NCBI GenBank assembly: GCA_031266655.1
Contig: JAISAP010000046.1
Coordinates: 1-50,068 of the forward strand
DNA length: 50,068 bases
Source of the DNA: Holosporales bacterium
GTDB taxonomy: Bacteria; Pseudomonadota; Alphaproteobacteria; UBA3830; JAIRMZ01
Direction of reading: 5' to 3'
Shown: positions 6,021-37,271 of the stretch, piece after piece
How the letters are laid out: every line of letters starts with the position of its first letter
Numbering within the stretch: position 1 is the first letter of the stretch
The notes under the pieces: model-generated
Told to the model about the DNA's origin: nothing
The model's input: the letters and a program-made list of their open reading frames with translations, nothing else
Database searches by the model: none
Translations under genes and position numbers: made by a program

Positions 6021-6022
6021 CG

Positions 6023-6036
6023 CCCCCCCCCCCCCC
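6023..6036. repeat. poly(C)14 homopolymer tract
   Basis: 14 consecutive C, 2 nt after the stop at 6020 and about 90 nt upstream of the next paralogue's -35 box. Confidence 0.9.
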
Positions 6037-6125
6037 TGCTCAATTGAAGGGGCGCATCCCTTTGACGATAGGTGTTCTGCTCAGGAAGACCCACCTCCTC
6101 TTCTCGGCGTTTTTACTTTACTACA

Positions 6126-6154
6126 TTGGTTATTTTGAAAATCTGTTCTACGCG
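6126..6154 (+). promoter_or_regulatory. putative promoter of the 6186 paralogue (TTGGTT-17 nt-TACGCG)
   Basis: Positional homologue of the TTGACT-17-TACnnn cassette. The -35 lies exactly 60 nt before the ATG, with AAGGA 9 nt before the ATG. Confidence 0.4.
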
Positions 6155-6185
6155 CTATACGTAAACAGTAATAAGGATAACAAGA

Positions 6186-7353: not shown

Positions 7354-7367
7354 ACGTTTAAGCTCTT

Positions 7368-7376
7368 CCCCCCCCC
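7368..7376. repeat. poly(C)9 homopolymer tract
   Basis: 9 consecutive C, 14 nt after the stop at 7353 and about 50 nt upstream of the next -35 box. Same relative position as the C14 tract. Confidence 0.9.
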
Positions 7377-7425
7377 TAATTTAGAAGACATCGCGCTCTC
7401 CTCCCCGACATTTTACTTTACCCTA

Positions 7426-7454
7426 TTGACTATTTTGAAAGCCTGCCCTACACA
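7426..7454 (+). promoter_or_regulatory. putative promoter (TTGACT-17 nt-TACACA)
   Basis: Conserved cassette. The -35 lies exactly 60 nt before ATG 7486. Confidence 0.45.
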
Positions 7455-7485
7455 CTGCATATGGACAATAATGAGGATAACAAGA

Positions 7486-9549: not shown

Positions 9550-9588
9550 AACAGCCCTCTCTCTTTCTGGCGTTTCTATTGCACCATG

Positions 9589-9617
9589 TTGACTATTCTG
9601 GGCACCTATTCTACGGA
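9589..9617 (+). promoter_or_regulatory. putative promoter (TTGACT-17 nt-TACGGA)
   Basis: Conserved cassette, 61 nt before ATG 9650. Confidence 0.45.
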
Positions 9618-9649
9618 TCATCCGTAAATAGTAACAGGGATGGCCGACG

Positions 9650-20573: not shown

Positions 20574-20672
20574 ACCCTCCAATGCAGGCTATTTCCTTAG
20601 GGAGGAGCGGCCCTACTGCGCAGCCTCAGGAGGGATGAACGCTCTCTCTTTACTTACTGCTGGATGCGCGTA

Positions 20673-20701
20673 TTGACTATACCAAAAATCTATTTTACAC
20701 T
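20673..20701 (+). promoter_or_regulatory. putative promoter (TTGACT-17 nt-TACACT)
   Basis: Conserved cassette, 57 nt before ATG 20730. Confidence 0.45.
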
Positions 20702-20729
20702 ACATGCACAGTTGACGGAGTCACGAACC

Positions 20730-21944
20730 ATGAAAAAACAAAAAATTTTAAGCGCAGTTTCTGCACTTGCTCTGGGAATGTTGAGCATCTTTTCCGAAAC
20801 CAATGCGATGTCTTCGAACGAGGGGCGGTTTGAAGAAGAGGAGGAAGCTCTTATAGGATCGCCCTGGTTTCTGGAATTACCCGTTAATGGGTTTCTCGCT
20901 CTCAGGTCGGCAACCGCTCATGCAGGGGTGTTTGAGCCGTCTCCGACCATCGTGGATAGAGCCTTTGTTTTATATCTGCAAGGGACAGACGTTGAGCTGC
21001 GGAGCTTCGTTATTCCCGCACACGTGGAGACTCTTGAGCAAAGATGCTTCTGGAATTACCAGCACCGGTCTCCTTTCTTCGTTGCCTTCGCAGCTAATCC
21101 ACAACTCAAGAGCATGGGGGAGGGAGTTTTTGCTGAATCTGGTTTGTTCCATATCACCATTCCGGCAGGCATAGGGGAGGTTAGCGCAGCGTGTTTTGTT
21201 GATTGCCCCTTGAGTTCCATTACCTTTGCGGCCGGTTCTCGAATCACGAGAATAAACCCAGATGCTTTTGAGGGTTCCAACTTGCAATTCTTTTTTGTTG
21301 TTTCAAGTGTGGAAGAGATCGGTGTACAGAGTTTCTACAGCTGCCAATCTCTTCGATGTGTTATGTTCGGAGAGGGGTGTCAACTTCAAGTGATACACGA
21401 GAGGACCTTTAGTTACTGCTCTGCCTTGCAATCCATCACTATTCCCGCGAGTGTGCAGGAGCTTAGAGAAAAATGTTTTGAAACTTGCTCGTCTCTTGGC
21501 TCTGTACTCTTCGAGAGTGGCTCTCAGCTTTCTGCGATTGGAAGGAAAGCCTTTAATCACTCTGCCGTGCAAGCCATCGTTATTCCCGCGAGTGTGGAGA
21601 TACTGGGAGATGGGTGTTTTGCCAATTGCAGCCATCTTTCCTCTGTTACCTTTGAGGACGGTTCTCAACTTGTGAAGGTAGGAGCAAAAGCTTTCTGTCG
21701 CTCTGCCTTGCAAGGCTTCACTGTCCCTGCAAGCGTAACGATACTGGGTGAAAGGTGTTTTGCTGATTGTACGGACCTTTCTCGGGTTATCTTTGCACAA
21801 AAGTTTCGACCCCAAGAGATTGGGAAGGATACGGTTGCTGGAAGTCCTCAGGTGCGGCTCATCGTCAAAACAGGAGCCAGCACAGGAAGGAACTGGCCCG
21901 TCGACAAGTTCAATCAAGGCCTGCGTCGCGCTCCCTCCTCTTAG
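20730..21944 (+). CDS. BspA-type LRR protein, secreted (paralogue 10)
   Basis: ORF 20664..21944. Start re-set to ATG 20730 (MKKQKILSAVSALALGMLSIFSETNA|M). LRR units IPASV.(I/E)L...CF..C..L.SV.FE.GSQL. Confidence 0.86.
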   Translation: MKKQKILSAVSALALGMLSIFSETNAMSSNEGRFEEEEEALIGSPWFLELPVNGFLALRSATAHAGVFEPSPTIVDRAFVLYLQGTDVELRSFVIPAHVETLEQRCFWNYQHRSPFFVAFAANPQLKSMGEGVFAESGLFHITIPAGIGEVSAACFVDCPLSSITFAAGSRITRINPDAFEGSNLQFFFVVSSVEEIGVQSFYSCQSLRCVMFGEGCQLQVIHERTFSYCSALQSITIPASVQELREKCFETCSSLGSVLFESGSQLSAIGRKAFNHSAVQAIVIPASVEILGDGCFANCSHLSSVTFEDGSQLVKVGAKAFCRSALQGFTVPASVTILGERCFADCTDLSRVIFAQKFRPQEIGKDTVAGSPQVRLIVKTGASTGRNWPVDKFNQGLRRAPSS

Positions 21945-22062: not shown

Positions 22063-22661
22063 CTTTGCTTCTACCCTGAAGATGCGGCAGGTCGGCCAGT
22101 AAATTCTCCTAAGAAGGCGCAAATAAAGTGAGGAAATAGTCCCTTTAAGACTTCCTGTTAAGAAAACGCTCAACTGAAGTCCGCCTCTCTTACACGTACG
22201 TAATCTTACGGTTTAAAAAGGGCTATTGTTTCGGCAATGGGAGGGCCATTTCCAAACCGGCGCATTTCTTCAAAGCCAGAGGAAGATTTTCTGTAAATTC
22301 CTCCGTGGACAGGTGTTCCTGCATCTTGATTGGATCCTACGATGAGAAAGCCGTTATCAAAAAGAGCCGCATGCATGGAACGCAGAGCGCGTAAAAACTC
22401 TTCTTTCGTAAAATAGGAAAGGTTGAGAAGGTTCATAGCTCGAATAACATGACTCGAACGCTTGAGAGGGCGAAGGATACTTTGCTCCTCTAGGAAGAAG
22501 TGTTTGTCTTCAGAAGACAAGCGTAATGCCTCAGGACAGAAAAGAAAAATTTCTTGCGAGTCCGATAATTTACCGAGATGGTAATTCATCAAGAGGCGCT
22601 TGGCGGGAAAGTGCAGAGCATACCAGCTCATCAGTGCATTGAAGGGATACCTCTTCCTGAA

Positions 22662-23367
22662 GGCTCCGGACTAGCATCTTTTTCGTCACTTGACCAGATT
22701 AGTTAGCAAACTGAGGAGATTCTCACCCCTGTTGCTGTACCGGAACTCACACTCCTTCAAGTGCAAAAGGAAGACATCGCCTCTTAAGCCGTTGAACTTA
22801 GCACAACGCCTCTCCGTGCAGCTCCAAAAGGCCTCAACAACGTAGCTCTTGCCTCTAGCAAACTCATTCTTACCCTGAAAGGCTCGGTAAGGATCCACCC
22901 CATTCACAACAAGCCCTTCATAGGTTCCCCAGCCATCTGTGTGAACCGTAGATCCCTCTAGAATCTTCCCTTGGGTAATAGGCATTAACTCTTCTCTTGA
23001 GCAATTCGGAACCATGCCAACAAACAACTTGCCCCTCTCTCTTTAACAAGCCAAAGACCAGAGTCTTTCCTGCTGCTCCACGACCTCTCTTGCCCCGACC
23101 TCTCTTCGCTCCAAAAGACCTCTCATCCAGCTCAAAGACACCAAAATCCCGAGAATCCTCCGCAAAACTCTGCTGCACGATCAGCTCTCGAAAGTACTTG
23201 TAATGCGAGTTAATCGTGTTTCGATTTATTTCTAACAACTTGCTCGCAGAACTTGCCGACATGTCCTCACAGAAACATGCAAGAATTCCATGTTTCTTGT
23301 AAGCTCCTAACCGACTGAACTTCAACATGTCTTACCCTACCTAACATCATTTTGCTAGGAGAGAGCC
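22662..23367 (-). mobile_element. IS1595-family (ISXO2-like) insertion sequence, 706 bp, decayed
   Basis: Imperfect terminal inverted repeats GGCTCCGGACTAGCA (22662-22676) and GGCTCTCTCCTAGCA (reverse complement of 23353-23367), 11/15 matches. Encloses the transposase reading frames. No target-site duplication seen. Confidence 0.7.
22686..23328 (-). pseudogene. IS1595-family DDE transposase, frameshifted
   Basis: N-terminal part 23328..22918 (...ELDERSFGAKRGRGKRGRGAAGKTLVFGLLKREGQVV). C-terminal part 23027..22686 (VPNCSREELMPITQGKILEGSTVHTDGWGTYEGL...GKNEFARGKSYVVEAFWSCTERRCAKFNGLRGDVFLLHLKECEFRYSNR). These are typical ISXO2-like motifs. The frames switch at GTTGTTTGTTGG, about 23020-23035. 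Confidence 0.8.
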
Positions 23368-24087
23368 AAATACAAAAGACCTGTAAACCACCTCCAGCAG
23401 ACGGTCTGTTGCGGCGTTTAAGACAACCTGGATACCCCCGGACTTGACAGTTCTTAAACACACGCCGTAGTCGGATGCGCAATAAAGGATGTTCGGAAAC
23501 CGCGATCGAAGGCGCTTGAAAAAATCGCAGGACGTACGACCATCGCTTACACCAACATCTTGAATCACTAACGGATCTTCTGTCGAAAAACGTTCCTTAA
23601 GATAAGAAAGGCGTCCACTTCTTCGTCAAAAGCGTCAAAGCGTGCTGCATACGTCCGTTTAAAAGCGCCACGATCATCCGTAAAATGGAACAGAATGCGC
23701 TCGGCAAGACAATCGGCATCGGGTTCGTTGATGACCGAGGGATACAAGGAGATCGATGCAAGCTTGGATCGCCCCCAACGAGAACGAAACCCCTTGTTGC
23801 GTAGAGCCTCAACGCTTGTGATTCCCGTCTTCAGCATCCCCCTTGCACTCCCACAACAGCAGGCGTGCCGGAAACTGCGTCTGGGCCAGAATGCCGAGAA
23901 GAAGGCGCTTTCACCATCAATTCAGCACCCCATACTAAGGCTGCCTGCCTGCCGAAGAAGTGACCCATCTTGCCTCAGTTCGTACTCACGTGCTCTGAAA
24001 CCGTAAAAGCATCTCAAACCTTCCCTACGCCACAAGAACACTAGCACATGATGCTCGCGCGTCTCGGAGACCTCACCTTGCTCCAGG

Positions 24088-25410: not shown

Positions 25411-25707
25411 ATGAGACAGAAAAATTCGCGAGATTTGTACGCGGCCATGGCCCTACTGACATCGGCCAAAGAGGTGGAGGACTTCCTGACCGATCTCTGC
25501 ACGCCAGCGGAAATCAAAGCTTTTTCTGAGCGATGGAGGGTATGCCAGATTTTGGATCGTGACGATTGCTCTTACAGAGACATCCGCAAAAACACGGGAG
25601 TCAGTTTGGCGACGATCAGCCGTGTTGCGCGCTTCTTGAAACATGAAAAATACGGAGGATACAGAAAAATGTTGGAAAAAATAGCACAAATGGAGAGAAA
25701 GTCATGA
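25411..25707 (+). CDS. YerC/YecD-family TrpR-related DNA-binding protein
   Basis: 98 aa. ...EVEDFLTDLCTPAEIKAFSERWRVCQIL......SYRDIRKNTGVSLATISRVARFLKHEKYGGY matches the family signature. Overlaps the next gene by 4 nt (ATGA). Confidence 0.8.
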   Translation: MRQKNSRDLYAAMALLTSAKEVEDFLTDLCTPAEIKAFSERWRVCQILDRDDCSYRDIRKNTGVSLATISRVARFLKHEKYGGYRKMLEKIAQMERKS

Positions 25708-26642
25708 AAAAGTTCCTTGCAATGAGCCTTTGCGCCTCCCTGGCCCTTCTAGAGGCGCAGGCAAAGCCGAGCATGCGTGTGAAAATTTGCAAAGCTGTGG
25801 AACACGCAGCCCTTAACTCTTCCGCCGCCGGCGTAGCAGATTTTCTCAAGCAGAAAGGGGCCGAACAGGGGATCTCTTACGATGTGAGCGTTGACACGTG
25901 CCAAGGCAACATGGCGCTAGCCTCCCAAATCATGGAGAAGGTTGCAGGTGAGAAGGTCGATGTGGTCGTCACCATTGGCACCCTACCGTCGCAATGCGCT
26001 TACAGGCTGGCGAAAAAAGGAAAGCTGAAGGCCGTTGTCTTTGTCTCAGTCACCAATCCCGACGATGTTGCTAGGGCACTTCCTCACGCAAACGTCACGG
26101 GCGTCTCGAACTTCGTTCCTCTCGAGCCCCAGATAGAGCTCTTCAAGAAGATTCAACCCGGGATCAAGACGCTGGGCGTCCTCTACAACCCCGGAGAGCC
26201 CAATTCTGTCGCCATCGTAGAGCGATTACGCCCCGTGTGTGAGAAAATGGGTGTCGTTCTCAAGCTGCAAGCGATCCCACGTGCTTCGGACATTCCTCAG
26301 GCGACAGAGCGCTTGGCGAAAGAGGCCGATGCGCTTTTCATCAGCAACGATAATCTCGCGCTGAGCGCTATTCCCAACATCGTCGCTCTTTGCTCAAAGC
26401 GGAAGGTCCCTGTCTATGTGAGCGATACGGACCAGGTCGCTCATGGATGCCTTGCCTCTCTCGGTCCCAATCAGTACGAAATTGGGCGCCAGGCAGGGAA
26501 AATGGTGGCGCAGATCGCGGAAGGAAAAAGCCCGAACACCATTCCGGTGGAATATGCGGAGACGCGGGAGCTACACGTGAACACAAAAGGTCCTATCGGG
26601 ATTCCCGAATCGGTCCGAGCAGAAGCGCACAAGGTGCTCTGA
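25704..26642 (+). CDS. ABC transporter substrate-binding protein (ABC_sub_bind / putative Trp-Tyr uptake family)
   Basis: 312 aa. Signal peptide MKKFLAMSLCASLALLEAQA. Motifs VVVTIGTLPSQ, VVFVSVTNP, GVSNFVP, IKTLGVLYNPGEPNS. Confidence 0.8.
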   Translation: MKKFLAMSLCASLALLEAQAKPSMRVKICKAVEHAALNSSAAGVADFLKQKGAEQGISYDVSVDTCQGNMALASQIMEKVAGEKVDVVVTIGTLPSQCAYRLAKKGKLKAVVFVSVTNPDDVARALPHANVTGVSNFVPLEPQIELFKKIQPGIKTLGVLYNPGEPNSVAIVERLRPVCEKMGVVLKLQAIPRASDIPQATERLAKEADALFISNDNLALSAIPNIVALCSKRKVPVYVSDTDQVAHGCLASLGPNQYEIGRQAGKMVAQIAEGKSPNTIPVEYAETRELHVNTKGPIGIPESVRAEAHKVL

Positions 26643-26651
26643 GGAACCACC

Positions 26652-27530
26652 ATGTTGGCTTGGGAAGAACTGCTTGTCGCCTTAGAAATCGGCCTGATCT
26701 ATGGGATTTTGGCAATCGGGATCTATTTGACGTTTAGAGTCATCAATTTTCCCGACATGACCTGCGACGGAAGCTTCATTTTCGGGGCTGTCGTTTCCTC
26801 CGTCCTGATCCAATCCGGGAGCAACCCCGCGACCGCGCTGCTGCTTTCCCTGGTAGCAGGAGGCCTTGCCGGCTTCCTCACGGGAATCCTCTGCGTATGG
26901 CTGAAAATCGAGGATTTCCTCTCGGGAATCGTCATTGCCTTCATGCTGTACTCCGTCAACTTACGCGCGATGGGGTCTTGTCCCAACATCACCCTCGTTG
27001 ACCAGACCACCTGCTTCAGCGCAGGCAATACGCTCTTGAGTATCTCCCTCGTTTCCGCAGGCCTCATCTTGCTGCTCTCCCTTTTTCTGCGTACAGATTG
27101 CGGCCTGGGGCTGAGAGCCGCGGGCCAAAATCCCTCGTTCGCTTCCGCCTGCGGGATCCCTGTGCGCGTGATGATCATCGGAGGGCTGGTCCTGAGTAAC
27201 GCCCTCATCGGTCTATGTGGAGCGCTTTTTACGCAATACCAAGGATTTTGCGATATCTCGCAGGGGCCAGGAACTCTTGTCATTGGGTTGGCCTCTGTCA
27301 TGATGGGAGAGAATTTTCTCAGCCGACTGCTCCCCAAGAAGGCCGCCCATGCCTCTCGCATTCCTGTTCTCCCCGCTCTCATAGCTTGTATCGGCGGATC
27401 AGTTGCTTACAGGATTTTTATCGCTTTTGCCTTGCATAGCGATTCCTTCGGAATGAAGACGCAGGATCTTAACCTGGTCACGGGCCTTTTGATCATTCTG
27501 GTGATGAAGACCAAGAGAACTACGCCATGA
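26652..27530 (+). CDS. ABC transporter permease (partner of ABC_sub_bind systems)
   Basis: 292 aa, multi-TM. N-terminal INFPDMTCDGSF motif typical of this permease family. Confidence 0.82.
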   Translation: MLAWEELLVALEIGLIYGILAIGIYLTFRVINFPDMTCDGSFIFGAVVSSVLIQSGSNPATALLLSLVAGGLAGFLTGILCVWLKIEDFLSGIVIAFMLYSVNLRAMGSCPNITLVDQTTCFSAGNTLLSISLVSAGLILLLSLFLRTDCGLGLRAAGQNPSFASACGIPVRVMIIGGLVLSNALIGLCGALFTQYQGFCDISQGPGTLVIGLASVMMGENFLSRLLPKKAAHASRIPVLPALIACIGGSVAYRIFIAFALHSDSFGMKTQDLNLVTGLLIILVMKTKRTTP

Positions 27531-28210
27531 GGGAAGTGCTCACGCTTCAAAAAATTACCGTGAGGGATGTCCTGACAGACCTGAGCTTCACAGTGGGCGA
27601 GAGCGAGTGGGTGCTCGTCGTGGGAGACAACGGTGCCGGGAAAACGACGTTATTTAATACGATCTTGGGCAACATCCTGCCCGATAGGGGGAAGGTCCTG
27701 ATAGAGGGGAGCGACGTCACGTCTCTTCCTCCGCACAGTCGAGCATCTGTGATGGCGCATGTTTTCCAGGATCCAACCGCCGGAACGGTGGGCCATATGA
27801 CGATTCGGGAGAATCTGCGCCTGGCTTCTCGACGCGGGAAGAAGCGCTCTTACCTCCGGTTCCCCTCCCGCAAGCGCGATGAGGCTTACCGAGAGCAATT
27901 GAGTGCGTTGCGTATGAACCTGGAGGATCGCCTGGACGATTATGCGGGAGACCTTTCCGGAGGACAGCGACAAGCGCTGAGCATCGTCCTGTCTCTCTTG
28001 ACGGAGTCTAAAATCTGGCTTCTCGACGAAATTACCGCTGCCCTTGACCAAAAAACCTCCGCCACCATCTTGGAAGTCGTTCGCAACACGCTTCGTCAGA
28101 GAAAACAGACTTGCCTTATGATCACACACAATCCCCAGCACATTGGGCAGTTGGGAGATCGCGTGCTGATCTTGAAGGACGGGAGAGTACACGAGCAAGA
28201 CTTGCGGTAA
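27527..28210 (+). CDS. ABC transporter ATP-binding protein
   Basis: Walker A GDNGAGKTT, signature LSGGQRQAL, Walker B IWLLDEITAALD. 4-nt overlap with the permease gene. Confidence 0.93.
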   Translation: MREVLTLQKITVRDVLTDLSFTVGESEWVLVVGDNGAGKTTLFNTILGNILPDRGKVLIEGSDVTSLPPHSRASVMAHVFQDPTAGTVGHMTIRENLRLASRRGKKRSYLRFPSRKRDEAYREQLSALRMNLEDRLDDYAGDLSGGQRQALSIVLSLLTESKIWLLDEITAALDQKTSATILEVVRNTLRQRKQTCLMITHNPQHIGQLGDRVLILKDGRVHEQDLR

Positions 28211-28230: not shown

Positions 28231-29460
28231 CTATTTATGGGGCTTCTGGTGATGGGAAGCTGCGGCAGCGGGATGAGGGTGGGGAGCCCCGGCAGCGGGA
28301 CGGAACCTGCCATGAAAGGGGTGCTCTTGGTGAATCTGTTGGGCTTTGCCCATATGCTCCATCGCTGTTTTACGGTGTTCTGCCACATTTTCTGGGTGCA
28401 TCCTATGCTGTTCTACAGCTTGACGATATCCTTCAAGTGCTGCGTGTTTGTTCTTTAAATTTTCTGCCCAGGGGTGCTTTGCTCCCTGAAGTTGACCGGT
28501 CTCTTTAGCATGAAAACTCTGCCCTGCCTTCCACTCAGACTCATCCCACGGATGGCGCGGTCCTGGATGTTTACCGCCTCCTCCAGGAGGACCGCCTGGT
28601 GGTCCGCCACGGCCTTTACCTCCTCTAGGACCCCCATGAGGCCCCCAGAGCGGCACAACCGGTTTGTCCGGAATCCTTGCCGCCGCTGCTCTTACCTCGC
28701 TGTGAAGCGTCCTCGCTTGATCCTCACATCTCTTCGCTGCATCCAGGTGGTGGAAAGATTCGTCATGTTTGCCCTGCTCATAAGCGATCGTGTGTTTTCG
28801 CATCTCTTCCTGGTATTCCCTTATTGCCCGGTAGTACTCAGATGTTTTGGTGCAGAGATCTTTTTTGGCGGGATCGCTCTCCTTCGCGGCAGCCTCCGCG
28901 TACGTTTGGGCGCGGTGTGTGTAGAAAGGCGCGTCCCATACAGCCCCCGGAGGGAGCTCAAGGTGTGTCGTGTGAGGCAACGGCTTTTTGCATTGGTGGG
29001 GACAACCTTTTCCTTTGGGAAGCGCGCCTCCGGGTGGCGGCGAAGGAGAAAGAGAACGTCGTCCCTTGCGCAGGTCAGGCCCTCCCGATACCGGAGAGGG
29101 AGAAGGAGAGCGCCGTTCCCTGTGCACGTTGGGGTTCCCCCGCGGATCTGTGGCATCCCTTCTGAACCGCCACAGATGGTGGGAAGAAGGAGCAGGACTA
29201 GCAGCGGGATTGTGTGGAGTGGGGACTGGGGACGGGACGTAAGGAGCTCTTGCTGCAGGAGAAGGAGCGCTTGCTACAGGAGGAAGAGGAGTGCTCGCAG
29301 CGGGAGAAGGAGTGCCAGAGGGGTTGCCTGCTGGAGCTGTCTGATCTAAGTTGCCGTCTTCGTAAAGAGACGTGCTGTCCGTTTGGGGAGCAGCTTGCGT
29401 TGGGCCTAAGCAAAAAGCCACACAACAGATCACAGTCCATTTTCTCCGCAGGTCCCTCAT
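28231..29460 (-). CDS. secreted Pro-rich / His-rich low-complexity protein
   Basis: 409 aa. Signal peptide MRDLRRKWTVICCVAFCLGPTQA|A. Pro/Ser-rich N-half, Gly/Pro block PPGGPPGGGGKHPGP, and a C-terminal helical His-rich part with HPENVAE/HRKTAME/HMGKAQQ heptads. Confidence 0.7.
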   Translation of the reverse strand: MRDLRRKWTVICCVAFCLGPTQAAPQTDSTSLYEDGNLDQTAPAGNPSGTPSPAASTPLPPVASAPSPAARAPYVPSPVPTPHNPAASPAPSSHHLWRFRRDATDPRGNPNVHRERRSPSPSPVSGGPDLRKGRRSLSPSPPPGGALPKGKGCPHQCKKPLPHTTHLELPPGAVWDAPFYTHRAQTYAEAAAKESDPAKKDLCTKTSEYYRAIREYQEEMRKHTIAYEQGKHDESFHHLDAAKRCEDQARTLHSEVRAAAARIPDKPVVPLWGPHGGPRGGKGRGGPPGGPPGGGGKHPGPRHPWDESEWKAGQSFHAKETGQLQGAKHPWAENLKNKHAALEGYRQAVEQHRMHPENVAEHRKTAMEHMGKAQQIHQEHPFHGRFRPAAGAPHPHPAAAASHHQKPHK

Positions 29461-29507: not shown

Positions 29508-30416
29508 TCAGTGTTTCACAGACCCATGATGCGACGCTGGAGGACTATGAGCGTGCGTACCCTGTGCCTTCTTATGGTGGGGTGCATCCGGTGGGCGCAC
29601 TGGGCTTGGGTTACGGGAGCGTACGGCTGGTGTTTTTGGACCATGGCTAGACGGCGGGTCCGGCACCTTCTCATGAGGTGGGCGCTGCGCAGAATTGGGG
29701 GTCGAGCGACGCTTTTCTGCCTCAATTTGGGGCTCCTTTGTCAGGCTCGGATTATGGGGGCGTACGGCTGGTGTTTTTGGACCATGGCTAGACGGCGGGT
29801 CCGGCACCTTCTCATGAGTGGGGCGCTGTGCGGCATTAGGGCTCGAGCGGAGCTTTTCTGCCTCGATCCGGGACTCCTGTTTTGGTTCGCTAGGTGGGCG
29901 CTGTGCAACATTAGGGCTCGAGCGACGCTTTTCTGCCTCGATCTGAGGTCCCTGTTTTCCACGACGCCACCTGAGGTGCACTTGTCCATCGCGCACTTCC
30001 ACACGAAGCGTGGGCCCAAAAATAGTCTTGGCGTGGAGGGCAATCTGATCCAGATAGGGTTTAGCTAGATCATGACGCCCACGATTCGTATACCAATAAT
30101 ACTGCGTTACAGCCACGCGAGTCCTGTTCCAGGCTGGCTGGTGGACAGGATCCTCAACGATAGGGGGAACTTTCTTCTTCTCCTTATGCCAATAATACTG
30201 CGTTACAGCCGCGCGAGTCTTGTTCCGGGCTGGCTGGTGGACAGGATCCTCAACGATAGAGGGAACTTTCTGCGCTTGCTTTTTAACAGCACCTTGTTGG
30301 TGAGTCGTGGGTGCGGCCACCGGAGCTCCCGGACGTTCCATCGCTTGTACAGGTCCAGAGAAAAAGCCCACGGCAAGGGCGATTGTGCACACAAATGGTC
30401 TATAAGAATGCGTCAT
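29508..30416 (-). CDS. secreted tandem-repeat protein (shares signal peptide with the His-heptad family)
   Basis: 302 aa. MTHSYRPFVCTIALAVGFFSGPVQA|MERPGAP. 2 x 32-aa repeat (KVP.IVEDPVHQPA.N.TR.AVTQYYW). 47-aa repeat (PQIEAEKRRS.PN.AQRP.HEKVPDPPSSHGPKTPAVR), 2 full copies plus 1 partial. Confidence 0.75.
   Translation of the reverse strand: MTHSYRPFVCTIALAVGFFSGPVQAMERPGAPVAAPTTHQQGAVKKQAQKVPSIVEDPVHQPARNKTRAAVTQYYWHKEKKKVPPIVEDPVHQPAWNRTRVAVTQYYWYTNRGRHDLAKPYLDQIALHAKTIFGPTLRVEVRDGQVHLRWRRGKQGPQIEAEKRRSSPNVAQRPPSEPKQESRIEAEKLRSSPNAAQRPTHEKVPDPPSSHGPKTPAVRPHNPSLTKEPQIEAEKRRSTPNSAQRPPHEKVPDPPSSHGPKTPAVRSRNPSPVRPPDAPHHKKAQGTHAHSPPASHHGSVKH
29580..29950 (-). repeat. 141-bp in-frame tandem repeat (2 full + 1 partial copy)
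   Basis: GTACGGCTGGTGTTTTTGGACCATGGCTAGACGGCGGGTCCGGCACCTTCTCATGAG occurs at 29621 and 29762 (period 141). Boundaries are approximate. Confidence 0.8.
30085..30280 (-). repeat. 96-bp in-frame tandem duplication
   Basis: CCAATAATACTGCGTTACAGCC.CGCGAGTC.TGTTCC.GGCTGGCTGGTGGACAGGATCCTCAACGATAG.GGGAACTTTCT occurs at 30093 and 30189. Boundaries are approximate. Confidence 0.8.
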
Positions 30417-30441: not shown

Positions 30442-31233
30442 TCAGGGATGTCGATGCCTCGCTCTCTGGTGGCGAGCCGCGGATACGCCATGATTTGGGT
30501 GTTGTCCGGCGTTAAAATGCGGATGACACCTTTCCGTATTCACTCGGACCGTATGGGCTCCACTATAGGCATGGTGTGCATGCCCCTGGTGTGCGGTCGC
30601 CTCGTTATAATGCGTTATCGCGCGGAATCCATGCCCATGAGCGTTTTCTGCGTGGTGAACGGAATGGTTGTAGAAGGCTCTTGCCTGATCATGGCGTCCG
30701 CTCCCCATATGTCCATAATGGGCTGCCATAGCACCATGATGCTCGTGCATCGCCCTATGAAAATCTGCATGAGCAAGGTTCTCTTGGTGTCTTGCGCGAA
30801 ACGCGTTCGCATAATGGCCATTTTCCTCAGCTTTCTGGCGATGGTACGTTGCTTGTTGCCGATGATACAGCTTCAGCTGCCCTTCAGTTCTTCTCACATA
30901 CCCTGTGTGGACAACCGCCTGACGGTCGTGAAACGCAGCAAGATTCCGGTGATGGTCTTCATGTATTTGATGCCTGGCAGCATTTTGCTGGTGAGACACA
31001 GCAAGTTGACGGTGCGTTTCTGCGGCAGTTGCATGGTCTGAAGCGTGGTTTCTGTGCTCATCATGAGAAATGTGCGAGAAAGGGTGCACGCCAGCTGACG
31101 GCGTCGGAGGGACGGCTATGACCGTTCTAGAGGCAGGAGCAGCAAGGCGCCTCATCGCCCACAAGGATCCGGAGCAAAAACTCACAGAAAGGGCAATTGC
31201 ACCTACAAGTAGTTTGTAGGGGTGTACCACCAT
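30442..31233 (-). CDS. secreted His-heptad protein (paralogue A, 263 aa)
   Basis: MVVHPYKLLVGAIALSVSFCSGSLWA|MRRL. GGGAG Shine-Dalgarno. His at aa 60,67,74,81,88,95,102,109. Conserved blocks H.AN.F.A...E..AHAD.H..MH and NH.V.H...A.GH. Confidence 0.8.
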   Translation of the reverse strand: MVVHPYKLLVGAIALSVSFCSGSLWAMRRLAAPASRTVIAVPPTPSAGVHPFSHISHDEHRNHASDHATAAETHRQLAVSHQQNAARHQIHEDHHRNLAAFHDRQAVVHTGYVRRTEGQLKLYHRQQATYHRQKAEENGHYANAFRARHQENLAHADFHRAMHEHHGAMAAHYGHMGSGRHDQARAFYNHSVHHAENAHGHGFRAITHYNEATAHQGHAHHAYSGAHTVRVNTERCHPHFNAGQHPNHGVSAARHQRARHRHP

Positions 31234-31348
31234 TTGCTCCCTTCAGAAAACTTCTACAAGTCCATTCAAACCAAACTTTATTAAGAAGTAGGAAAAAAGT
31301 ACTAGCGGAGTGATGAGGAGAACCTCGGCATGGTGTTGGTGCACAAGA

Positions 31349-31984
31349 TTAGTGTGCGGTAGTATGCGGACGGAATTTCACCGCCCTTTTCCCAGCCTTC
31401 TGCGCCCGTCTGAAAGCGTCACGTGCACGTCTAAAATGCACATTTCCTACCGCATGATACGTCTGTGCGCGATCCGCATGTCCCTGAGCCTTTTTTGTGT
31501 GTTGAACAGCGTGATTGACATAATGCTGATGCATTTCTACGTGATGATCTGCATGAGCACGATGCTCCTGAGCTTTTGCGAGAAATCCGTTAGCGCGATG
31601 AGTATGTTCTTGTGCCTCATGCTGGTTGCGCGCAGCCTGTTCCAGATGGTACTGCTTCTGCTGTCCGGTGGTTTTCTTCGCAAGCTCCCTATGCTTGTTT
31701 GCCTCACTGGCATGACCTTCAGCAATCACCCGATGATTGAAGGCCAGCTCTTGATTTTTACCAGCAGCTTTCCGGTGCGATCCAACAAGCCGAGCGTGTG
31801 CGGCCGCAATTTTTCCGTGGACTGCAGCTTCGGCTGCATGCCCAACATGCTTGATGCGCGCGAAAAGCTGCGCCACAGGTCTGGTTGCCGGAGCTCCCGA
31901 GCGCTTCATCGCTTGCACGGATCCGGAGAAAAAACTCACAGAAAGGGCGATTGCGCCGATAAACAGTTTGTAGGGGTGTACCAC
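31349..31984 (-). CDS. secreted His-heptad protein (paralogue B, 211 aa; GTG start)
   Basis: (M)VHPYKLFIGAIALSVSFFSGSVQA|MKRSGAP. His/Asn at aa 49,56,63,70,77(N),84,91,98. HRANGFLAKAQEHRAHADHHVEMH. The 5' leader is near-identical to that of paralogue A. Confidence 0.8.
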   Translation of the reverse strand: MVHPYKLFIGAIALSVSFFSGSVQAMKRSGAPATRPVAQLFARIKHVGHAAEAAVHGKIAAAHARLVGSHRKAAGKNQELAFNHRVIAEGHASEANKHRELAKKTTGQQKQYHLEQAARNQHEAQEHTHRANGFLAKAQEHRAHADHHVEMHQHYVNHAVQHTKKAQGHADRAQTYHAVGNVHFRRARDAFRRAQKAGKRAVKFRPHTTAH

Positions 31985-32073
31985 ACTTTGCTCCCTTCAG
32001 AAAACTTCTATAAGTCCATTCAAACCAAACTTTATTAAGAAGTAGGCAAAAAGTACTAGCGGAGTGATGAAAG

Positions 32074-32103
32074 GAAGGGGAAAGATTTTTCCCCTTCTTT
32101 TTT
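32074..32103. terminator. intrinsic-terminator-like hairpin between His-heptad genes
   Basis: GAAGGGGAAA (32074-83), loop GATT, TTTCCCCTTC (32088-97), then T6 (32098-32103) on the + strand. A short A tract precedes it, so it could act bidirectionally. It lies about 100 nt downstream of the stop of the 32200 gene (minus strand). Confidence 0.5.
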
Positions 32104-32199
32104 GTGGGAGCGGCCTAGTTTTGAGCGCCCTCTTCTTGGATACTCCCTCGGTAGGCCCTAGTGCCCCGCCTTGAAAACTCGGCGTGGGAATGGTGACCG

Positions 32200-33123
32200 T
32201 CAATGATGAGTCATACCCGGTGCGCCATGGCGCATCGCGCCTGGACCACGGTGGTGCTCACCCGGTAGGGCACCGCGGTGTATCGGGACTCCGTGGGGGG
32301 GGGTCTGTGAAAGATGGGGGTGCTGCGCAGGATTGAAGTGCGGATGGAACGCCACTGCCCTGGCTCCAGCCTCCTGTGCCCGTCTACGAGCATCATGCGC
32401 ACGTCTACGATACACGTTTCCTACCGCTTGATGCGCATGTGCACGATCCGCATGTCCCTGGGCATTCCTTGTGTGTTGAACGGCATGATTGAAGCGGTCT
32501 CTCGCATGGTCGTGACGTCTGTTCGCCATATGCTCATGATGGTCCGCCATAGCCGCATGATGGTGATGCATTTCTACGTGATGATCTGCACGAGCAAGAT
32601 GCTCGTGAGCTCTTGCGAGAAATCCGTTAGCGCGATGATGGTGCTCTTGCGCCGTATGCCGATGCTGCTCAGCCTGCGCTTGATGATGGCGCCTCATCCA
32701 TCCGGCAACTCTCCCAGCGAGCCCCTCATGCCTAATGGCGTGACGCGTGTGGTTCGCCGCAAGATCCCGATGATTGTTTGCTTGCTCCCGATTCCTAGCA
32801 GCAGCTTGCCGATGAGATGTTGCTTGCCGACCGTGTGTGGCTGCAGCACTTCTATGGTCTGTTGCATGAGCAGCGTGCTCGGCACGACTGATGTGCGGCA
32901 GAGTGACGTGCGGCAGTTGGGGCACCTTGGGAAGGTGCGCGGCAATCTGCTCTCTAAATGCAGGCTTTGGTGCCGCAGCAATCCGCGCTTTAAACGTTGA
33001 GACTGGGGTAGGCTTTGTCGCCGGGGCAGACGTAGCAGGACGCCTCATCGCCTCCGAAGACCCGGAGAGGAACCCTACGGAGAGGGCGATTGCGCAGGTA
33101 AAGGACTTGTAAGAGCGTGTCAT
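32200..33123 (-). CDS. secreted His-heptad protein (paralogue C, 307 aa)
   Basis: MTRSYKSFTCAIALSVGFLSGSSEA|MRRP. His/Asn at aa 83,90,97,104,111(N),118,125,132, with Ala at +4 in 7/7 heptads. HRANGFLARAHEHLARADHHVEMHHHH. His/Pro/Gly-rich tail. Confidence 0.8.
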   Translation of the reverse strand: MTRSYKSFTCAIALSVGFLSGSSEAMRRPATSAPATKPTPVSTFKARIAAAPKPAFREQIAAHLPKVPQLPHVTLPHISRAEHAAHATDHRSAAATHGRQATSHRQAAARNREQANNHRDLAANHTRHAIRHEGLAGRVAGWMRRHHQAQAEQHRHTAQEHHHRANGFLARAHEHLARADHHVEMHHHHAAMADHHEHMANRRHDHARDRFNHAVQHTRNAQGHADRAHAHQAVGNVYRRRAHDARRRAQEAGARAVAFHPHFNPAQHPHLSQTPPHGVPIHRGALPGEHHRGPGAMRHGAPGMTHH

Positions 33124-33244
33124 TGTTCGTTCCTTTCAGAAAATTTCTACAAGCTCATTTAAACCAAACTTTATTAAAAAAGCGTTAACAAATACCCGAT
33201 GAGAAGATTTACATTGCAGGAGGGGAATGGTATGAGGGGCCTGT

Positions 33245-34171
33245 ATGCAGAGGAAGAGTGGCGTGAGGAAGAAGAAGCGGTCTTCTCCTTTCAAGAAGGT
33301 ATTTCTGTGTCTTCTCGCTCTGTATTCTCTGCCGTTTTTCTTCTGCGATGGGGCTTTTGTGTATGAGCGGCGCCCCGTTGCGCCCCCGAAAGAGCCAGAA
33401 TCTCCAGGAGTGATCGTCTATATCATCAACATGGATCGCTCCCCACAGAGATGGGCTTCGATCCTCCCACAAGCGCAGCAACTCGGTCTTCCCATGGAGC
33501 GCATTCCTGGAGTGGACGGGCAACTTCTCTCAGAGGAAGAGCTTTCAAAGCTTGTGGATCGGGAACAACACTGCGCCTCTAAGGGGCGATATGCTGGGAA
33601 AGGAGAGGTGGGCTGCGCGCTCAGTCACACAAAAGCTTGGAAGCGTTTCCTTGACTCTCCCTACGCCTACGCCTTAGTCCTGGAGGATGATGTTTTCTTG
33701 GATCCCGGTCGCGTTCAGAGGATCGTCTCCCAGCTGCTCACAGTGCCCCACATGTGGGATACGGTGTTCTTCAATACGGATTTTCGCTCCGGAGTGCCGA
33801 TGACGATGCGCTCCTTCGGGGAGGATGGAGAACTCGTCGTGCATCTGAGAACCACATGGGGAACGCAGTGCTATCTTATCAACCGAAAGGCGGCTGCAAC
33901 TCTTTCTGCCCATGCTTTCCCTATGAAAACGGATGTTGACCTGTTCTCCAAGCGTTCCTGGGAGTTTGGACTCAAGGTTGCGGGCATACATCCAAGATTT
34001 TGTACAGCTGACAAGTTCCCGTCGGATATCGGGTACGGGTATGAAGACGTTCCCCATGGCTTTTTCCCGGTACTCAAAAGCCGGATCCAACTTCATGTAT
34101 CTTCAATGAAGACGCGTATTATGCGTTTTGTATACAACTTGAAGTTATACTTTCAGCTCCGGGAGACATGA
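33245..34171 (+). CDS. glycosyltransferase family 25 (LPS/LOS beta-1,4-galactosyltransferase-like), membrane-anchored, paralogue 1
   Basis: 308 aa. N-terminal basic stretch plus TM (FLCLLALYSLPFFF). GT25 motifs VYIINMDRSPQRW, GEVGCALSHTKAWKRF, ALVLEDDV. Confidence 0.82.
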   Translation: MQRKSGVRKKKRSSPFKKVFLCLLALYSLPFFFCDGAFVYERRPVAPPKEPESPGVIVYIINMDRSPQRWASILPQAQQLGLPMERIPGVDGQLLSEEELSKLVDREQHCASKGRYAGKGEVGCALSHTKAWKRFLDSPYAYALVLEDDVFLDPGRVQRIVSQLLTVPHMWDTVFFNTDFRSGVPMTMRSFGEDGELVVHLRTTWGTQCYLINRKAAATLSAHAFPMKTDVDLFSKRSWEFGLKVAGIHPRFCTADKFPSDIGYGYEDVPHGFFPVLKSRIQLHVSSMKTRIMRFVYNLKLYFQLRET

Positions 34172-34175
34172 GACG

Positions 34176-35087
34176 TTGAGAAGGAGAAAAAAATGCTCTC
34201 CCTTTCGAAAATTCCTGTGGCTTGCCCTTGCTCTATGCCTCCTCCCCTTTTTCCTTTTTGATGGTGCTTTTATCTGCGAACACCGTCCCATACCCTTCTC
34301 AGAGCCGGAGAATCCGCAGGGGATTGGGGTTTATGTGATCAACATGGAGTGTTCTGCAGACAGGCGCGCTTCTATTCTGCAGCAGGTGGAGCAACTCGGG
34401 TTCCCGTGGGAGAGGATGGCAGTGGATGGATCCCTTCTTTCAGAGGAGGAGATAGATCGCGTCGTGGATAAAGGTATTTTTCGGATGATCGAGACACGTT
34501 TTATCAAGAAAGGGGAGCTAGGGTGCTTTCTCAGCCATGCTCAAGTCTGGAAAGCCTTTTTACAATCTTCTTATCAATACGCGATTGTCTTTGAAGATGA
34601 TGTCCAGTTTGATGTCAACAAACTCCGAGAGATCGTTTCAGAGTTGACGCAAACACCGGCAGGTTGGGATGTCGTGAGTTTTGATACGGATAACCGTCAG
34701 GGGATGCCCTTGACGCTTCGGCGTTTGAAGACGGGGGATCGTCTGGTTGCCTACCTGGGGATGACGTTTCATATGGGAGCTTATCTCATCAGTAGAAAGG
34801 CAGCTGCTGCTCTCCTCTCTCATGCCTTTCCCATCAAAATGGCGTCTGATAACTTCTACTCGCGCGGGTGGGAGTTCGGACTTAAGTTTGCGGGAGTGGA
34901 GCCGATATTTGCGTTTCAAGTTTTCTCGCACTCTGTAAGCGAAACGATGGAACCCAGACATAGAGACAGGTCCGACCCCCTCAATCAGATGCGTTTCTGG
35001 GTTATGAAAAGGGTTTTCGAGGTAAAATCCCGTGTTATGCGTTTTGTATACAATCTAAAGTTGTACTTTCAGCTTCGAGAGGCATGA
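34176..35087 (+). CDS. glycosyltransferase family 25, membrane-anchored, paralogue 2 (TTG start)
   Basis: 303 aa. VYVINMECSADRR, GELGCFLSHAQVWKAF, AIVFEDDV. The N-terminus aligns with paralogues 1 and 3 only if TTG 34176 is the start. Confidence 0.8.
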   Translation: MRRRKKCSPFRKFLWLALALCLLPFFLFDGAFICEHRPIPFSEPENPQGIGVYVINMECSADRRASILQQVEQLGFPWERMAVDGSLLSEEEIDRVVDKGIFRMIETRFIKKGELGCFLSHAQVWKAFLQSSYQYAIVFEDDVQFDVNKLREIVSELTQTPAGWDVVSFDTDNRQGMPLTLRRLKTGDRLVAYLGMTFHMGAYLISRKAAAALLSHAFPIKMASDNFYSRGWEFGLKFAGVEPIFAFQVFSHSVSETMEPRHRDRSDPLNQMRFWVMKRVFEVKSRVMRFVYNLKLYFQLREA

Positions 35088-35088
35088 G

Positions 35089-36003
35089 GTGTCACGAGGC
35101 GGGAAGAAACGATCTCCGTTGCGGAACCTCCTGTGGTTTGTTCTTGTCCTATGCTCTCTGCCGTTTTTTCTTTTCGACGGCGCTTTTATCTGCGAACATC
35201 GTCCCATACCCTTCTCAGAGCCGGAGAATCCGCAGGGGATGGGGGTTTATGTGATCAACATGGAGCGTTCTGCAGACAGGCGCGCCTCTATTCTGCAGCA
35301 AGTGGAGCAACTCGGATTTCCGTGGGAGAGAATGGCGGTGGACGGCTCTCTTCTCTCGGCAGAAGAAATTGATCGTATCGTAGATAACGATGTTTTCCGG
35401 GTGATCCAGTGGCGCCCCATCAAAAAGGGGGAGCTTGGCTGCTTTCTCAGTCATGCTCAAGTCTGGAAAACCTTTTTACAATCTTCCTATCAATATGCCC
35501 TCGTCTTCGAAGATGATGTCCAGTTTGACGTCAAAAAACTCCGAGAAGTCCTCTTCGAGCTTATGCAGACACCGGTGGACTGGGATATCGTGAGTTTCGA
35601 AATAGACAACAATCGAGGAATGCCCTTGACGCTCCGACGTTTGAAAACAGGGGATCGATTGGTGATCTATCTGGGAGTTGCGCTCCATATGGGGGCTTAT
35701 CTCATCAGTAGAAAGGCAGCTGCCTCCTTGTTCTCGCATACTTTTCCCATCAAAATGCCTTCGGACGTCTTCTACACCCGTGGATGGGAGTTTGATCTCA
35801 AGTTTACGGGAGTGGAGCCGATCCTTGCGTCTCAAGTTTTTCCGCAATCTGAGATTGACACGATGGACCTCAGACGCAGAGACTCGCCCGATACCCTCAG
35901 TCAGATGCGTTTGTGGGTGAGGAAAAGGGTCCTCAAAATGAAATCCAATGTCATGCGTTTTTTATATAATCTGAAACTCTATTTTCAGTATCATCAATCG
36001 TAA
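35089..36003 (+). CDS. glycosyltransferase family 25, membrane-anchored, paralogue 3 (GTG start)
   Basis: 304 aa, highly similar to paralogue 2. The stop TAA overlaps the murA ATG (TAATG at 36001-36005). Confidence 0.8.
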   Translation: MSRGGKKRSPLRNLLWFVLVLCSLPFFLFDGAFICEHRPIPFSEPENPQGMGVYVINMERSADRRASILQQVEQLGFPWERMAVDGSLLSAEEIDRIVDNDVFRVIQWRPIKKGELGCFLSHAQVWKTFLQSSYQYALVFEDDVQFDVKKLREVLFELMQTPVDWDIVSFEIDNNRGMPLTLRRLKTGDRLVIYLGVALHMGAYLISRKAAASLFSHTFPIKMPSDVFYTRGWEFDLKFTGVEPILASQVFPQSEIDTMDLRRRDSPDTLSQMRLWVRKRVLKMKSNVMRFLYNLKLYFQYHQS

Positions 36004-37271
36004 TGGATCGTTTGCGCATACAGGGAGGGGTTCCTCTCAAAGGGGTGGTCCCCATCTCTGGAGCGAAAAACGCGGCACTGCCCATCATGGCAGCCTGTCT
36101 CCTAACGGATGCACCTCTGCGTTTGGAGAACGTCCCTCATCTCACCGATATTCGCGCCCTCTTGAGGCTTCTTGAAACGCTCGGAGTGACAAGCACCATG
36201 GATGGGCCAGCGCATCGCTTAACGCTCTCTGCGCATGCCCTTCAGCAGGTGCTGGCTCCTTATGACCTCGTGCGCAAGATGCGCGCCTCCATCCTAGTCC
36301 TCGGCCCCCTGGTTGCGCGCCATGGAAAGGCCAAGGTTTCGCTCCCAGGGGGATGCGCCATCGGGGTGCGCCCCGTGGATCTGCACCTGAGAGGGCTGGA
36401 AATGCTGGGTGCCTCTCTCTCCTTAGAGGATGGCTATATCTGTGCGGAAGCGCCCAAAGGCCTTGTGGGAGGAACGGTAACGTTTCCCGTGACAACCGTG
36501 ACAGGGACGGAAAACCTTCTGATGGCCGCCACTTTAGCGCGCGGAACCACGACGATCGTCAACGCTGCCCTTGAGCCCGAAGTCAGAGATCTTGCGACAT
36601 GCCTGAACGCGATGGGAGCACGGATTACGGGGCTTGGGACCCCGACCCTGACAATTGAGGGAGTGTCCGCCCTCAGTGGCGCAAAACACACGATTATTCC
36701 CGATCGGATCGAAGCGGGAACCTACGCATTAGCGGCTATGGCCACCCGAGGAGCACTCACTCTCAAAGCGCACGCGCTGGGAACGCTCTTGCCAAGCGAA
36801 CTCCCTATGCTCATCCAGATGGGGGCCCAGATCACACAGGAAGAGGAGAGCATCACCGTTTCTGCTCCCGAGACTCTTTCTGCTTGCGACATTACCACCG
36901 AGCCGTTTCCTGGGTATCCCACGGATCTCCAAGCACAAGGGATGGCGGTTTTATCTTTGGCTCAAGGATCCTCTATTATACGGGAGACGATTTGGGAGAA
37001 TCGGTTTATGCACATTGCAGAATTCGTGCGTATGGGAGCCGATATCAGTGTCCACGGGCTGACAGCGGTTGTGCGCGGCGTCCCCTGTCTCCAGGGGGCT
37101 CCCGTGATGGCCACCGACTTGCGCGCTTCCTTCGGATTGATCATCGCGGGACTCGCTGCTCAGGGAGAAACGATGCTCCACCGCCTCTATCACCTGGATC
37201 GGGGCTATGAAGCAACAGAGAAAAAGCTCTCGGCCTGCGGTGCTTGCGTGGAAAGAGTACGCGCCTCATGA
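36003..37271 (+). CDS. murA: UDP-N-acetylglucosamine 1-carboxyvinyltransferase MurA
   Basis: 422 aa. SGAKNAALPIMAA, active-site loop LPGGCAIGVRPVDLH. Confidence 0.97.
   Translation: MDRLRIQGGVPLKGVVPISGAKNAALPIMAACLLTDAPLRLENVPHLTDIRALLRLLETLGVTSTMDGPAHRLTLSAHALQQVLAPYDLVRKMRASILVLGPLVARHGKAKVSLPGGCAIGVRPVDLHLRGLEMLGASLSLEDGYICAEAPKGLVGGTVTFPVTTVTGTENLLMAATLARGTTTIVNAALEPEVRDLATCLNAMGARITGLGTPTLTIEGVSALSGAKHTIIPDRIEAGTYALAAMATRGALTLKAHALGTLLPSELPMLIQMGAQITQEEESITVSAPETLSACDITTEPFPGYPTDLQAQGMAVLSLAQGSSIIRETIWENRFMHIAEFVRMGADISVHGLTAVVRGVPCLQGAPVMATDLRASFGLIIAGLAAQGETMLHRLYHLDRGYEATEKKLSACGACVERVRAS

Follow-up and report, generated by a model that had tools for sequence, protein, structure and literature searches.

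Here we analyzed a 50,068-nt contig of a Holosporales bacterium (JAISAP010000046.1, assembly GCA_031266655.1; the whole stretch is called the window), focusing on three tandem genes, A, B, and C, whose products are rich in histidine and predicted to be exported. The genes are paralogs with 47–57% pairwise identity, and their open reading frames (ORFs) are intact, each with a ribosome-binding site on its 5′ side. An initial annotation, made from the sequence alone, had pointed to three His-rich tandem paralogs, and its counts (45/263, 26/211, and 49/307 residues) were exact on recount. The genes, taken from the ORF list and residue counts, and the main features of their products are as follows.

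30442–31233, minus strand: gene A, 263 amino acids (aa) with 45 His, including 8/8 His in the first array.
31349–31984, minus strand: gene B, 211 aa with 26 His, GTG start.
32200–33123, minus strand: gene C, 307 aa with 49 His, the longest paralog.
33049–33123, minus strand: predicted signal peptide of C, MTRSYKSFTCAIALSVGFLSGSSEA, with Met following; equivalents at 31910–31984 (B) and 31156–31233 (A).
32350–32886, minus strand: putative His-zipper helical domain of C, aa 80–258, with arrays at aa 83–138 (32710–32877), 147–202 (32518–32685), and 210–258 (32350–32496).
31376–31876, minus strand: putative His-zipper helical domain of B, aa 37–203, with arrays at aa 49–104, 113–156, and 157–203 (from the AlphaFold2 model and heptad tables).
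30529–31065, minus strand: putative His-zipper helical domain of A, aa 57–235, with arrays at aa 60–115, 124–179, and 187–235 (from the alignment to C and heptad tables).
32527–32580, minus strand: His/Met cluster of C, HHVEMHHHHAAMADHHEHM, with HxxMxxH at heptad spacing; equivalents at 30718–30759 (A) and 31523–31543 (B).

Pairwise codon comparison gave a ratio of nonsynonymous to synonymous substitution rates (dN/dS) of 0.22–0.39 for the minus frame of the three genes (0.22–0.37 for C against A and B) and of about 1.13 for the open antisense frame, and the minus-frame differences between paralogs are concentrated at third codon positions. Since the minus frame is constrained and the antisense frame approximately neutral, the minus strand is the coding strand, and A–C are real genes under purifying selection. 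Coding from the plus strand, which the initial annotation had named as a finding that would overturn it, is thereby effectively ruled out. The codons of the long plus-strand ORFs (30448–31041, 31310–32038, and 32314–33000) are in exact antisense register with those of A, B, and C. Two features keep the antisense frame open: the His codons CAY read as RTG in reverse, and the sense codons that turn into stops when reversed (TTA, CTA, and TCA) are rare. In public protein collections, C and A are represented only by C-terminal fragments (P0005 and P0006) and B is missing; gene callers evidently had trouble with this region. Relatives of A–C may be under-called in metagenomes, as His-rich genes keep an antisense frame open and public sets hold fragments.

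The signal peptides of A–C have a basic n-region, a hydrophobic core of 12–14 residues (AIALSV.F.SG), and small residues at −3 and −1, with predicted cleavage before Met and, as read from the sequence, neither a lipobox Cys nor a twin-Arg motif. They are conserved in A–C, in the neighboring gene D, and in the outside homolog P0011 (see below). Based on these signal peptides, A–C are predicted to be Sec-exported, and the common signal peptide that had been reported for the three paralogs is indeed present and of Sec type. A short Pro/Ala linker joins the signal peptide to a heptad core of ~180 residues, with disordered Pro- or His-rich ends; His/Pro-rich tails are found in A and C. The mature proteins are 186–282 aa long, with a pI of 10.3–11.9, a grand average of hydropathy (GRAVY) of about −1.1, and 13–15% large hydrophobic residues (LIVFMW). 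His makes up 13–19% and Ala 17–20% of the residues, with 0–1 Cys per protein. Net charge is +12 to +25 at pH 7 and rises to +40 to +59 at pH 5.5. The coding region of the C-terminal tail of gene C also contains a G9 run on the plus strand (coding C9, 32295–32303), a possible phase-variable site.

The central feature of A–C is a heptad pattern of His and Ala. Eight heptad-spaced positions are all His in A60–109 (8/8; nt 30907–31056), whereas seven His are joined by Asn77 in B49–98 (nt 31691–31840) and by Asn111 in C83–132 (nt 32728–32877). The residue at +4 is Ala in 6/7 (A), 6/7 (B), and 7/7 (C) heptads, or in 6/8, 7/8, and 8/8 when the eighth heptad is included. The initial annotation had described these eight-heptad arrays together with their +4 Ala counts and nucleotide ranges, all of which were confirmed. 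In composition-preserving shuffles of the mature sequences, the number of His in the eight heptad positions had P = 1.5e-4 (A), 3e-4 (B), and 4e-3 (C), and H(i)–A(i+4), H(i)–H(i+7), and A(i)–A(i+7) pairs each lay ~4 standard deviations over shuffles in every paralog, though as A, B, and C are paralogous these statistics do not come from independent samples.

The pattern is wider than first noted and extends over ~23 heptads across three long helices. C has His at 17 of the 23 a positions and Ala at 21 of the 23 e positions. Over the 67 heptad instances of A–C, His fills position a in 70%, the rest being aromatic residues or Asn, Ala fills position e in 82%, and charged residues account for 0–1% at a/e. 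Arg and Lys instead occupy positions b, c, d, and g, making up 19–28% of these solvent-facing positions. The second block of C (147–202) has His at 147, 154, 161, 175, 182, 189, and 196 with Phe at 168, and in the third (210–258) positions 217, 224, and 231 are His and position 238 is His or Tyr. The second and third blocks keep the same phase, which is offset by +1 from that of the first. The conserved downstream blocks HRANGFLA..ADHHVEMH and NHAVQHT..AQGHADRA, also noted earlier, are present but have diverged in A and are sharpest in the other two paralogs. An internal triplication of the eight-heptad unit was considered and rejected, as the helices have no residual similarity beyond positions a and e. 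Tandem Repeats Finder located only two short tandem DNA repeats inside A–C, both in gene C (a 21-nt unit ×2 and a 15-nt unit ×2.4). A low-complexity His-repeat protein of the HRPII or Hpn type was rejected given these few short repeats and the dissimilarity of the helices.

The distal part of helix 2 carries a second motif, in which Met recurs at heptad spacing and is flanked by His. HxxMxxH occurs twice in C, along with one HxxM, twice in A, and once in B, with HxxM/MxxH motif residues at C 182, 189, and 196, A 159 and 166, and B 148. These His/Met motifs are enriched over shuffles (P = 0.006–0.018).

AlphaFold2 prediction of mature C, for which the alignment consisted solely of the three paralogs, gave helices at mature residues 55–111, 116–175, and 179–233, mostly with a predicted local distance difference test (pLDDT) score >90, and disordered ends, with a predicted template modeling (pTM) score of 0.61. 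For B, two helices were predicted at mature residues 12–79 and 82–178, with a mean pLDDT of 87. Compared with C, exactly 21 aa (three heptads) are deleted in B around the helix 2/3 turn. The predicted helices span 56–97 residues at pLDDT >90 in an antiparallel arrangement, which supports the long helical His/Ala stripe that the initial annotation had proposed. The predicted secondary structure of A–C is robust, whereas the tertiary and quaternary arrangement is not.

Searches for known families returned no assignment for these proteins. Pfam and NCBIfam scans of A–E gave only sub-threshold noise, with no family at E up to 1, and PDB sequence searches with C, a profile, and a helical fragment gave nothing relevant. 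The view that A–C lack a homologous characterized family therefore stands for Pfam, NCBIfam, and PDB sequences. Foldseek with the B and C models gave no match at E <1e-3, with generic long bundles (BAR domains, trypanosome receptors, chemoreceptors, and colicins) appearing alongside 5LOS, the structure of Dld1, which had the highest identity of any entry listed for model B (26%, E = 0.12). The broader statement that no family with this architecture had been described did not survive, since histidine-zipper coiled coils are already known, both from 5LOS and the DELD proteins (PMC3192844) and from bacteria (PMC8616854).

The bacterial histidine zippers, which are suspected metal scavengers, include the CASP14 targets T1083 (Nitrosococcus oceani Q3JAX3), T1084 (Meiothermus silvanus D7BIZ4), and T1087 (Methylobacter tundripaludum G3J1N2; Hartmann & Lupas, PMC8616854). 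Like A–C, these have repetitive heptad His, are all-alpha, and are without a Pfam family; they form antiparallel hairpins with His between the helices and are often oligomeric. The H(i)–A(i+4), H(i)–H(i+7) rule of A–C also holds in seven small bacterial His/Ala hairpins (P0015–P0021), whose heptad is xHHxxAA; they were fetched with an inexact T1084-like query, which matched no PDB entry or identical protein (best 63% identity). The fetched hairpins are 75–120 aa long, lack a signal peptide, and usually have two His and two Ala per heptad. Unlike the known bacterial histidine zippers of ~75–100 aa, A–C are exported and 2–3 times longer, with ~23 heptads and helices of 56–97 residues. Each of their heptads holds a single His (H[R/A]xxA[A]x), and the proteins are also very basic, with disordered Pro- or His-rich ends. 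In pattern A–C look like histidine zippers, with homology to the known ones absent from our searches. What is new in A–C is the export, the 2–3-fold length, the single His per heptad, the strong basicity, and the restriction to Holosporales, while the architecture itself is already known.

The DELD proteins are secreted and Cys-free, with regularly spaced His and Ala on two antiparallel helices, and include Dld1 (PIIN_05872, PDB 5LOS) from the root endophyte Serendipita (Piriformospora) indica (PMC3192844). Dld1 is reported to influence metal homeostasis and reactive oxygen species (PMC9610748, PMC13655452). The family resembles A–C in its signal peptide, His/Ala enrichment, absence of Cys (0–1 in A–C), and expansion into paralogs in a symbiont, but differs in being eukaryotic and 101–135 aa long, with a central Gly hairpin and a C-terminal RSIDELD. 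Dld1 reportedly unfolds with pH and metals, according to 2020 work by Nostadt and colleagues. Membership of A–C in the DELD family was rejected on two grounds. RSIDELD is absent from their C-termini, which end in RARHRHP, RPHTTAH, and APGMTHH, and mature A–C, at 186–282 aa with helices of 56–97 residues, do not fit the DELD size of 101–135 aa with two helices and a central Gly.

Several metal-binding families were compared with A–C as well. SilE and PcoE are likewise small, Sec-exported periplasmic proteins with HxxM/MxxH motifs on helices. However, there are no sil, pco, or cus genes near A–C, and the His/Met cluster of A–C takes up only ~18 residues of a His/Ala-heptad domain. SilE is disordered without metal. 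Membership in SilE/PcoE was rejected in view of the Pfam/NCBIfam scans, which gave no match at E up to 1, and of the neighbors, which are three GT25 genes, MurA, and an ABC transporter. The CpxP/Spy/ZraP and CnrX types were rejected because the LTXXQ and Metal_resist Pfam models were unmatched at E up to 1. The copper stores Csp1 and Csp3 are Cys-lined four-helix bundles, and Csp1 is exported. A–C resemble these in concept, as a helical bundle whose interior seam carries one regularly spaced ligand, but the Csp ligand is Cys and there is no homology; Csp membership was rejected given the 0–1 Cys per protein and the two or three helices predicted. Alacoil-type tight antiparallel coiled coils, a structural class, also keep Ala at a constant heptad position from repeat to repeat. 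Alacoil is a packing motif rather than a protein family and says nothing on the His of A–C.

The distribution of A–C is extremely narrow. When 1.84 billion representative proteins were searched with a profile built from the three paralogs, P0011 was the sole outside relative, the remainder being the window's own fragments, the gene D signal peptide, and tetratricopeptide-repeat and tandem-repeat noise. P0011, annotated as “hypothetical protein [Holosporales bacterium]”, has a signal peptide and comprises 111 aa, truncated by the contig end. It aligns gapless over 64 residues at 36% identity, and its a-His and e-Ala columns are invariant. The P0011 locus (L082, 5237–6221 of a 6.2-kb Holosporales contig) adjoins a TrcR-like gene and is divergent from a resistance-nodulation-division (RND) pump. 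A metal link through this context was rejected, as the RND pump is multidrug-type and not heavy-metal-type. A word-indexed protein search with C found nothing and with P0011 only P0011 itself, and scanning GTDB genomes and JGI metagenomes at the DNA level with the paralog alignment and P0011 found zero relatives. The only other copies of the cluster are identical contigs from a single run, SRR14710922, among them a Logan contig with an identical gene C. The family is real but lineage-restricted to the Holosporales.

As for the organism, MurA (36003–37271) has 76% identity to a Holosporales metagenome-assembled genome (MAG) and ≤60% to other alphaproteobacteria. This MurA and the gene content of the window fit a host-associated alphaproteobacterium in or near Holosporales. 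In the nearest genome by MurA, the same Holosporales MAG, the A–C cluster is not beside murA. Holosporales are obligate associates of eukaryotes, with one clade known solely from animal and termite guts (PMC11909080).

We favor the reading that A–C are exported, lineage-restricted, extra-long histidine zippers that reversibly bind transition metals and/or protons and serve as a metal scavenger or buffer, and we put its probability at roughly 45%. The zipper packing, the metal or proton binding, and the cellular role are what we infer here. The core of ~180 residues and ~23 heptads would fold as two or three very long antiparallel helices. With His at a and Ala at e, imidazoles would line the inter-helix seam and the His of antiparallel helices would interdigitate, the i+4 Ala making room and permitting close helix approach. 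Further assembly into oligomers is possible. Together, the stacked His ladder, the HxxMxxH cluster at the tip of helix 2, and the His/Pro tails of A and C would provide many reversible transition-metal sites, and each chain would present ~25–50 titratable groups near pH 6. Given such metal sites and titratable groups, a scavenger or buffer role seems most likely. The proteins would act in the periplasm or after release, with fold and charge responsive to metal load and pH.

Several points weigh against this. With few acidic co-ligands and a pI of 10.3–11.9, A–C are no less suited to binding polyanions than to binding cations. The function of known histidine zippers is itself largely speculative, and A–C have no sequence or profile homology to them, none having surfaced in the 1.84e9-representative profile search; hhalign of A–C against the small bacterial His/Ala hairpins gave 11% probability. 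The AlphaFold2 tertiary folds differ, with three bundled helices for C but, for B, a hairpin in which one helix runs to 97 residues, and both come from a three-sequence alignment with pTM of 0.61–0.64. Finally, a scan of the window for a metal transporter, chaperone, or metalloregulator found none. The roles named in the initial annotation (metal binding, pH switch, or effector) are still plausible, but no metal-homeostasis gene in the window lends them support.

Histidine zippers are a recently recognized coiled-coil type whose role is still guesswork. The A–C family adds a much longer three-helix form, predicted Sec export, and a lineage-restricted expansion in an uncultured symbiont, and points to the cell envelope or host interface as the site of action. 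Its natural His/Ala helices, predicted at 56–97 residues, offer material to gauge the metal-ion or proton capacity of such a seam. A bolder version, which we regard as rather unlikely, is that A–C are the first exported multi-helix histidine zippers and use ~17–19 seam His per chain as a high-capacity, pH-gated metal (or heme) store or scavenger; the setting would be the periplasm or the host compartment, in a Holosporales symbiont associated with protists or the gut. If true, the Cys-lined Csp copper stores would have a His-based analog in A–C, and the histidine-zipper class would gain a physiological role.

Among the alternatives, A–C could be cationic polyanion binders that coat or bridge anionic polymers, with the cell's own lipo-oligosaccharide or peptidoglycan, host nucleic acids, or glycans as targets and the zipper only a scaffold. 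We consider this unlikely, though it is the alternative that fares best. The charge from Arg and Lys would then be constant and that from His tunable by pH or metal, as in histidine-rich glycoprotein or HRPII. The high pI, the net charge of +12 to +25 at pH 7 and +40 to +59 at pH 5.5, and the Arg/Lys share of positions b, c, d, and g (19–28%) all suit this alternative, as do the likewise basic exported products of the neighboring genes D and E. The cluster is also divergent from three GT25 lipo-oligosaccharide glycosyltransferase genes, but this adjacency is perhaps a coincidence. Titles cited in PMC11909080 report Holospora periplasmic proteins that are released in infection, one of them weakly binding host DNA. 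Polyanion binding leaves unexplained why His keeps so strictly to a and Ala to e on a charge-free face, and why there are His/Met motifs, and the Pfam/NCBIfam scans found no nucleic-acid- or glycan-binding domain.

It is more doubtful that A–C serve life in an acidifying host vacuole as a pH switch or proton sponge. Here the His ladder would hold the bundle at neutral pH, and protonation near pH 6 would unzip it, either buffering the compartment or triggering activation, release, or escape. With 26–49 His per chain and His in the predicted seam, the charge jump between pH 7 and 5.5 is big, and Holospora infectious forms, which have abundant periplasmic proteins, are activated by digestive-vacuole acidification (PMC11909080). 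The designed pH-responsive bundle 8GL3 is among the Foldseek matches listed, but these matches are not significant. Against this role, too, the MurA of this bacterium is only 76% identical to that of the Holosporales MAG. Because large hydrophobic residues are few (LIVFMW 13–15%, GRAVY −1.1), membrane lysis after unfolding is unlikely.

Heme binding or sequestration is improbable to a further degree. The a-position His pairs on antiparallel helices would act as bis-His ligands, with the i+4 Ala forming a cavity. Bis-His heme ligation is known from b-type cytochromes and designed maquettes, and heme-binding maquettes and designed bundles are among the fold matches. HRPII, which is also His/Ala-rich, is implicated in heme detoxification in a passage of PMC3192844. 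A–C lack the hydrophobic pocket residues usual at heme sites, however, and there are no heme transport genes nearby in the window. The remaining point in favor of heme is an ICE (Irr box)-like repeat in the leaders of the three genes.

33135–33151, 31996–32012, and 31242–31258: ICE (Irr box)-like imperfect inverted repeats, matching TTTAGAA-N3-TTCTAAA at 12/14 positions, 9–10 nt upstream of the start codon.

TTTAGAA-N3-TTCTAAA is the ICE consensus of alphaproteobacterial Irr, which is heme-responsive (PMC1698941), and the three leader sites are the sole matches with ≤2 mismatches in the 50-kb window. However, the three copies amount to one duplicated event, the box overlaps the ribosome-binding site, and it is not conserved upstream of the Holosporales homolog P0011. 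As an Irr site the box is a weak lead.

That A–C are not functional, with the plus-strand ORFs as the true genes or the region as decaying low-complexity sequence, has in its favor the long open antisense ORFs across all three genes and the public collections with fragments of A and C and none of B, but it is effectively refuted by the antisense dN/dS of ~1.13 against 0.22–0.39 in the minus frame, by the predominance of third-position differences, and by the conservation of signal peptide, ribosome-binding site, and leader.

Each of A, B, and C has its own conserved 5′ module, made up of a leader of ~55–85 nt and the signal-peptide coding region, and this module corresponds to a repeat family (D1, 196 nt, three copies). 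The leaders, the hairpin that follows C, and the two further genes of the cluster are located as follows.

33124–33209, minus strand: conserved 5′ leader of C, TTAATAAAGTTTGGTTT.AATG..CTT.TAGAA.TTTTCTGAA.GGA, ending in the ribosome-binding site; copies at 31985–32070 (B) and 31234–31316 (A).
32078–32094, minus strand: terminator-like hairpin between C and B.
29508–30416, minus strand: gene D, 302 aa, the A–C signal-peptide module with a different, Pro-rich basic mature part.
28231–29460, minus strand: gene E, 409 aa, a basic exported Pro/Gly-rich protein, closing the same-strand cluster.

Since each gene has its own 5′ module and C is followed by a terminator-like hairpin, A, B, and C are probably transcribed separately. 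A sigma-70 promoter scan of the leaders gave nothing convincing. The first 36 residues of gene D are common to A–C (hhalign 96.9%), as is the ribosome-binding site of the leader. Its mature part is Pro-rich, basic, and unrelated, with tandem repeats of 141 nt (47 aa) ×2 and 96 nt (32 aa) ×1.9. Judged by its sequence, gene D looks like a reused export module. Homology between gene E and A–C was sought and none was found.

Upstream of C, across a 121-nt spacer, lie three divergent tandem paralogous GT25 genes of the lipopolysaccharide/lipo-oligosaccharide type (33245–36003), followed by MurA. On the other side of the cluster, 25411–28210 holds a Trp-repressor-like gene and then an ATP-binding cassette (ABC) transporter (PF04392 binding protein, permease, and ATPase), ending convergently beside gene E; this transporter may be an aromatic amino-acid uptake system. 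The window also encodes LigA, RecN, Lon, ClpX, NusG, and a ChpT-like phosphotransferase. A region without a long ORF at 22200–23900, with strongly negative GC skew and broken ORFs that by eye resemble an IS1595-type transposase, is probably a decayed insertion sequence. Ten BspA-type leucine-rich repeat genes (Pfam LRR_5) form two arrays (4620–15129 and 18363–21944), a large expansion typical of host-associated bacteria. Homopolymers of C14 (6023–6036) and C9 (7368–7376) lie between or upstream of the BspA genes and may be slipped-strand (phase-variable) sites.

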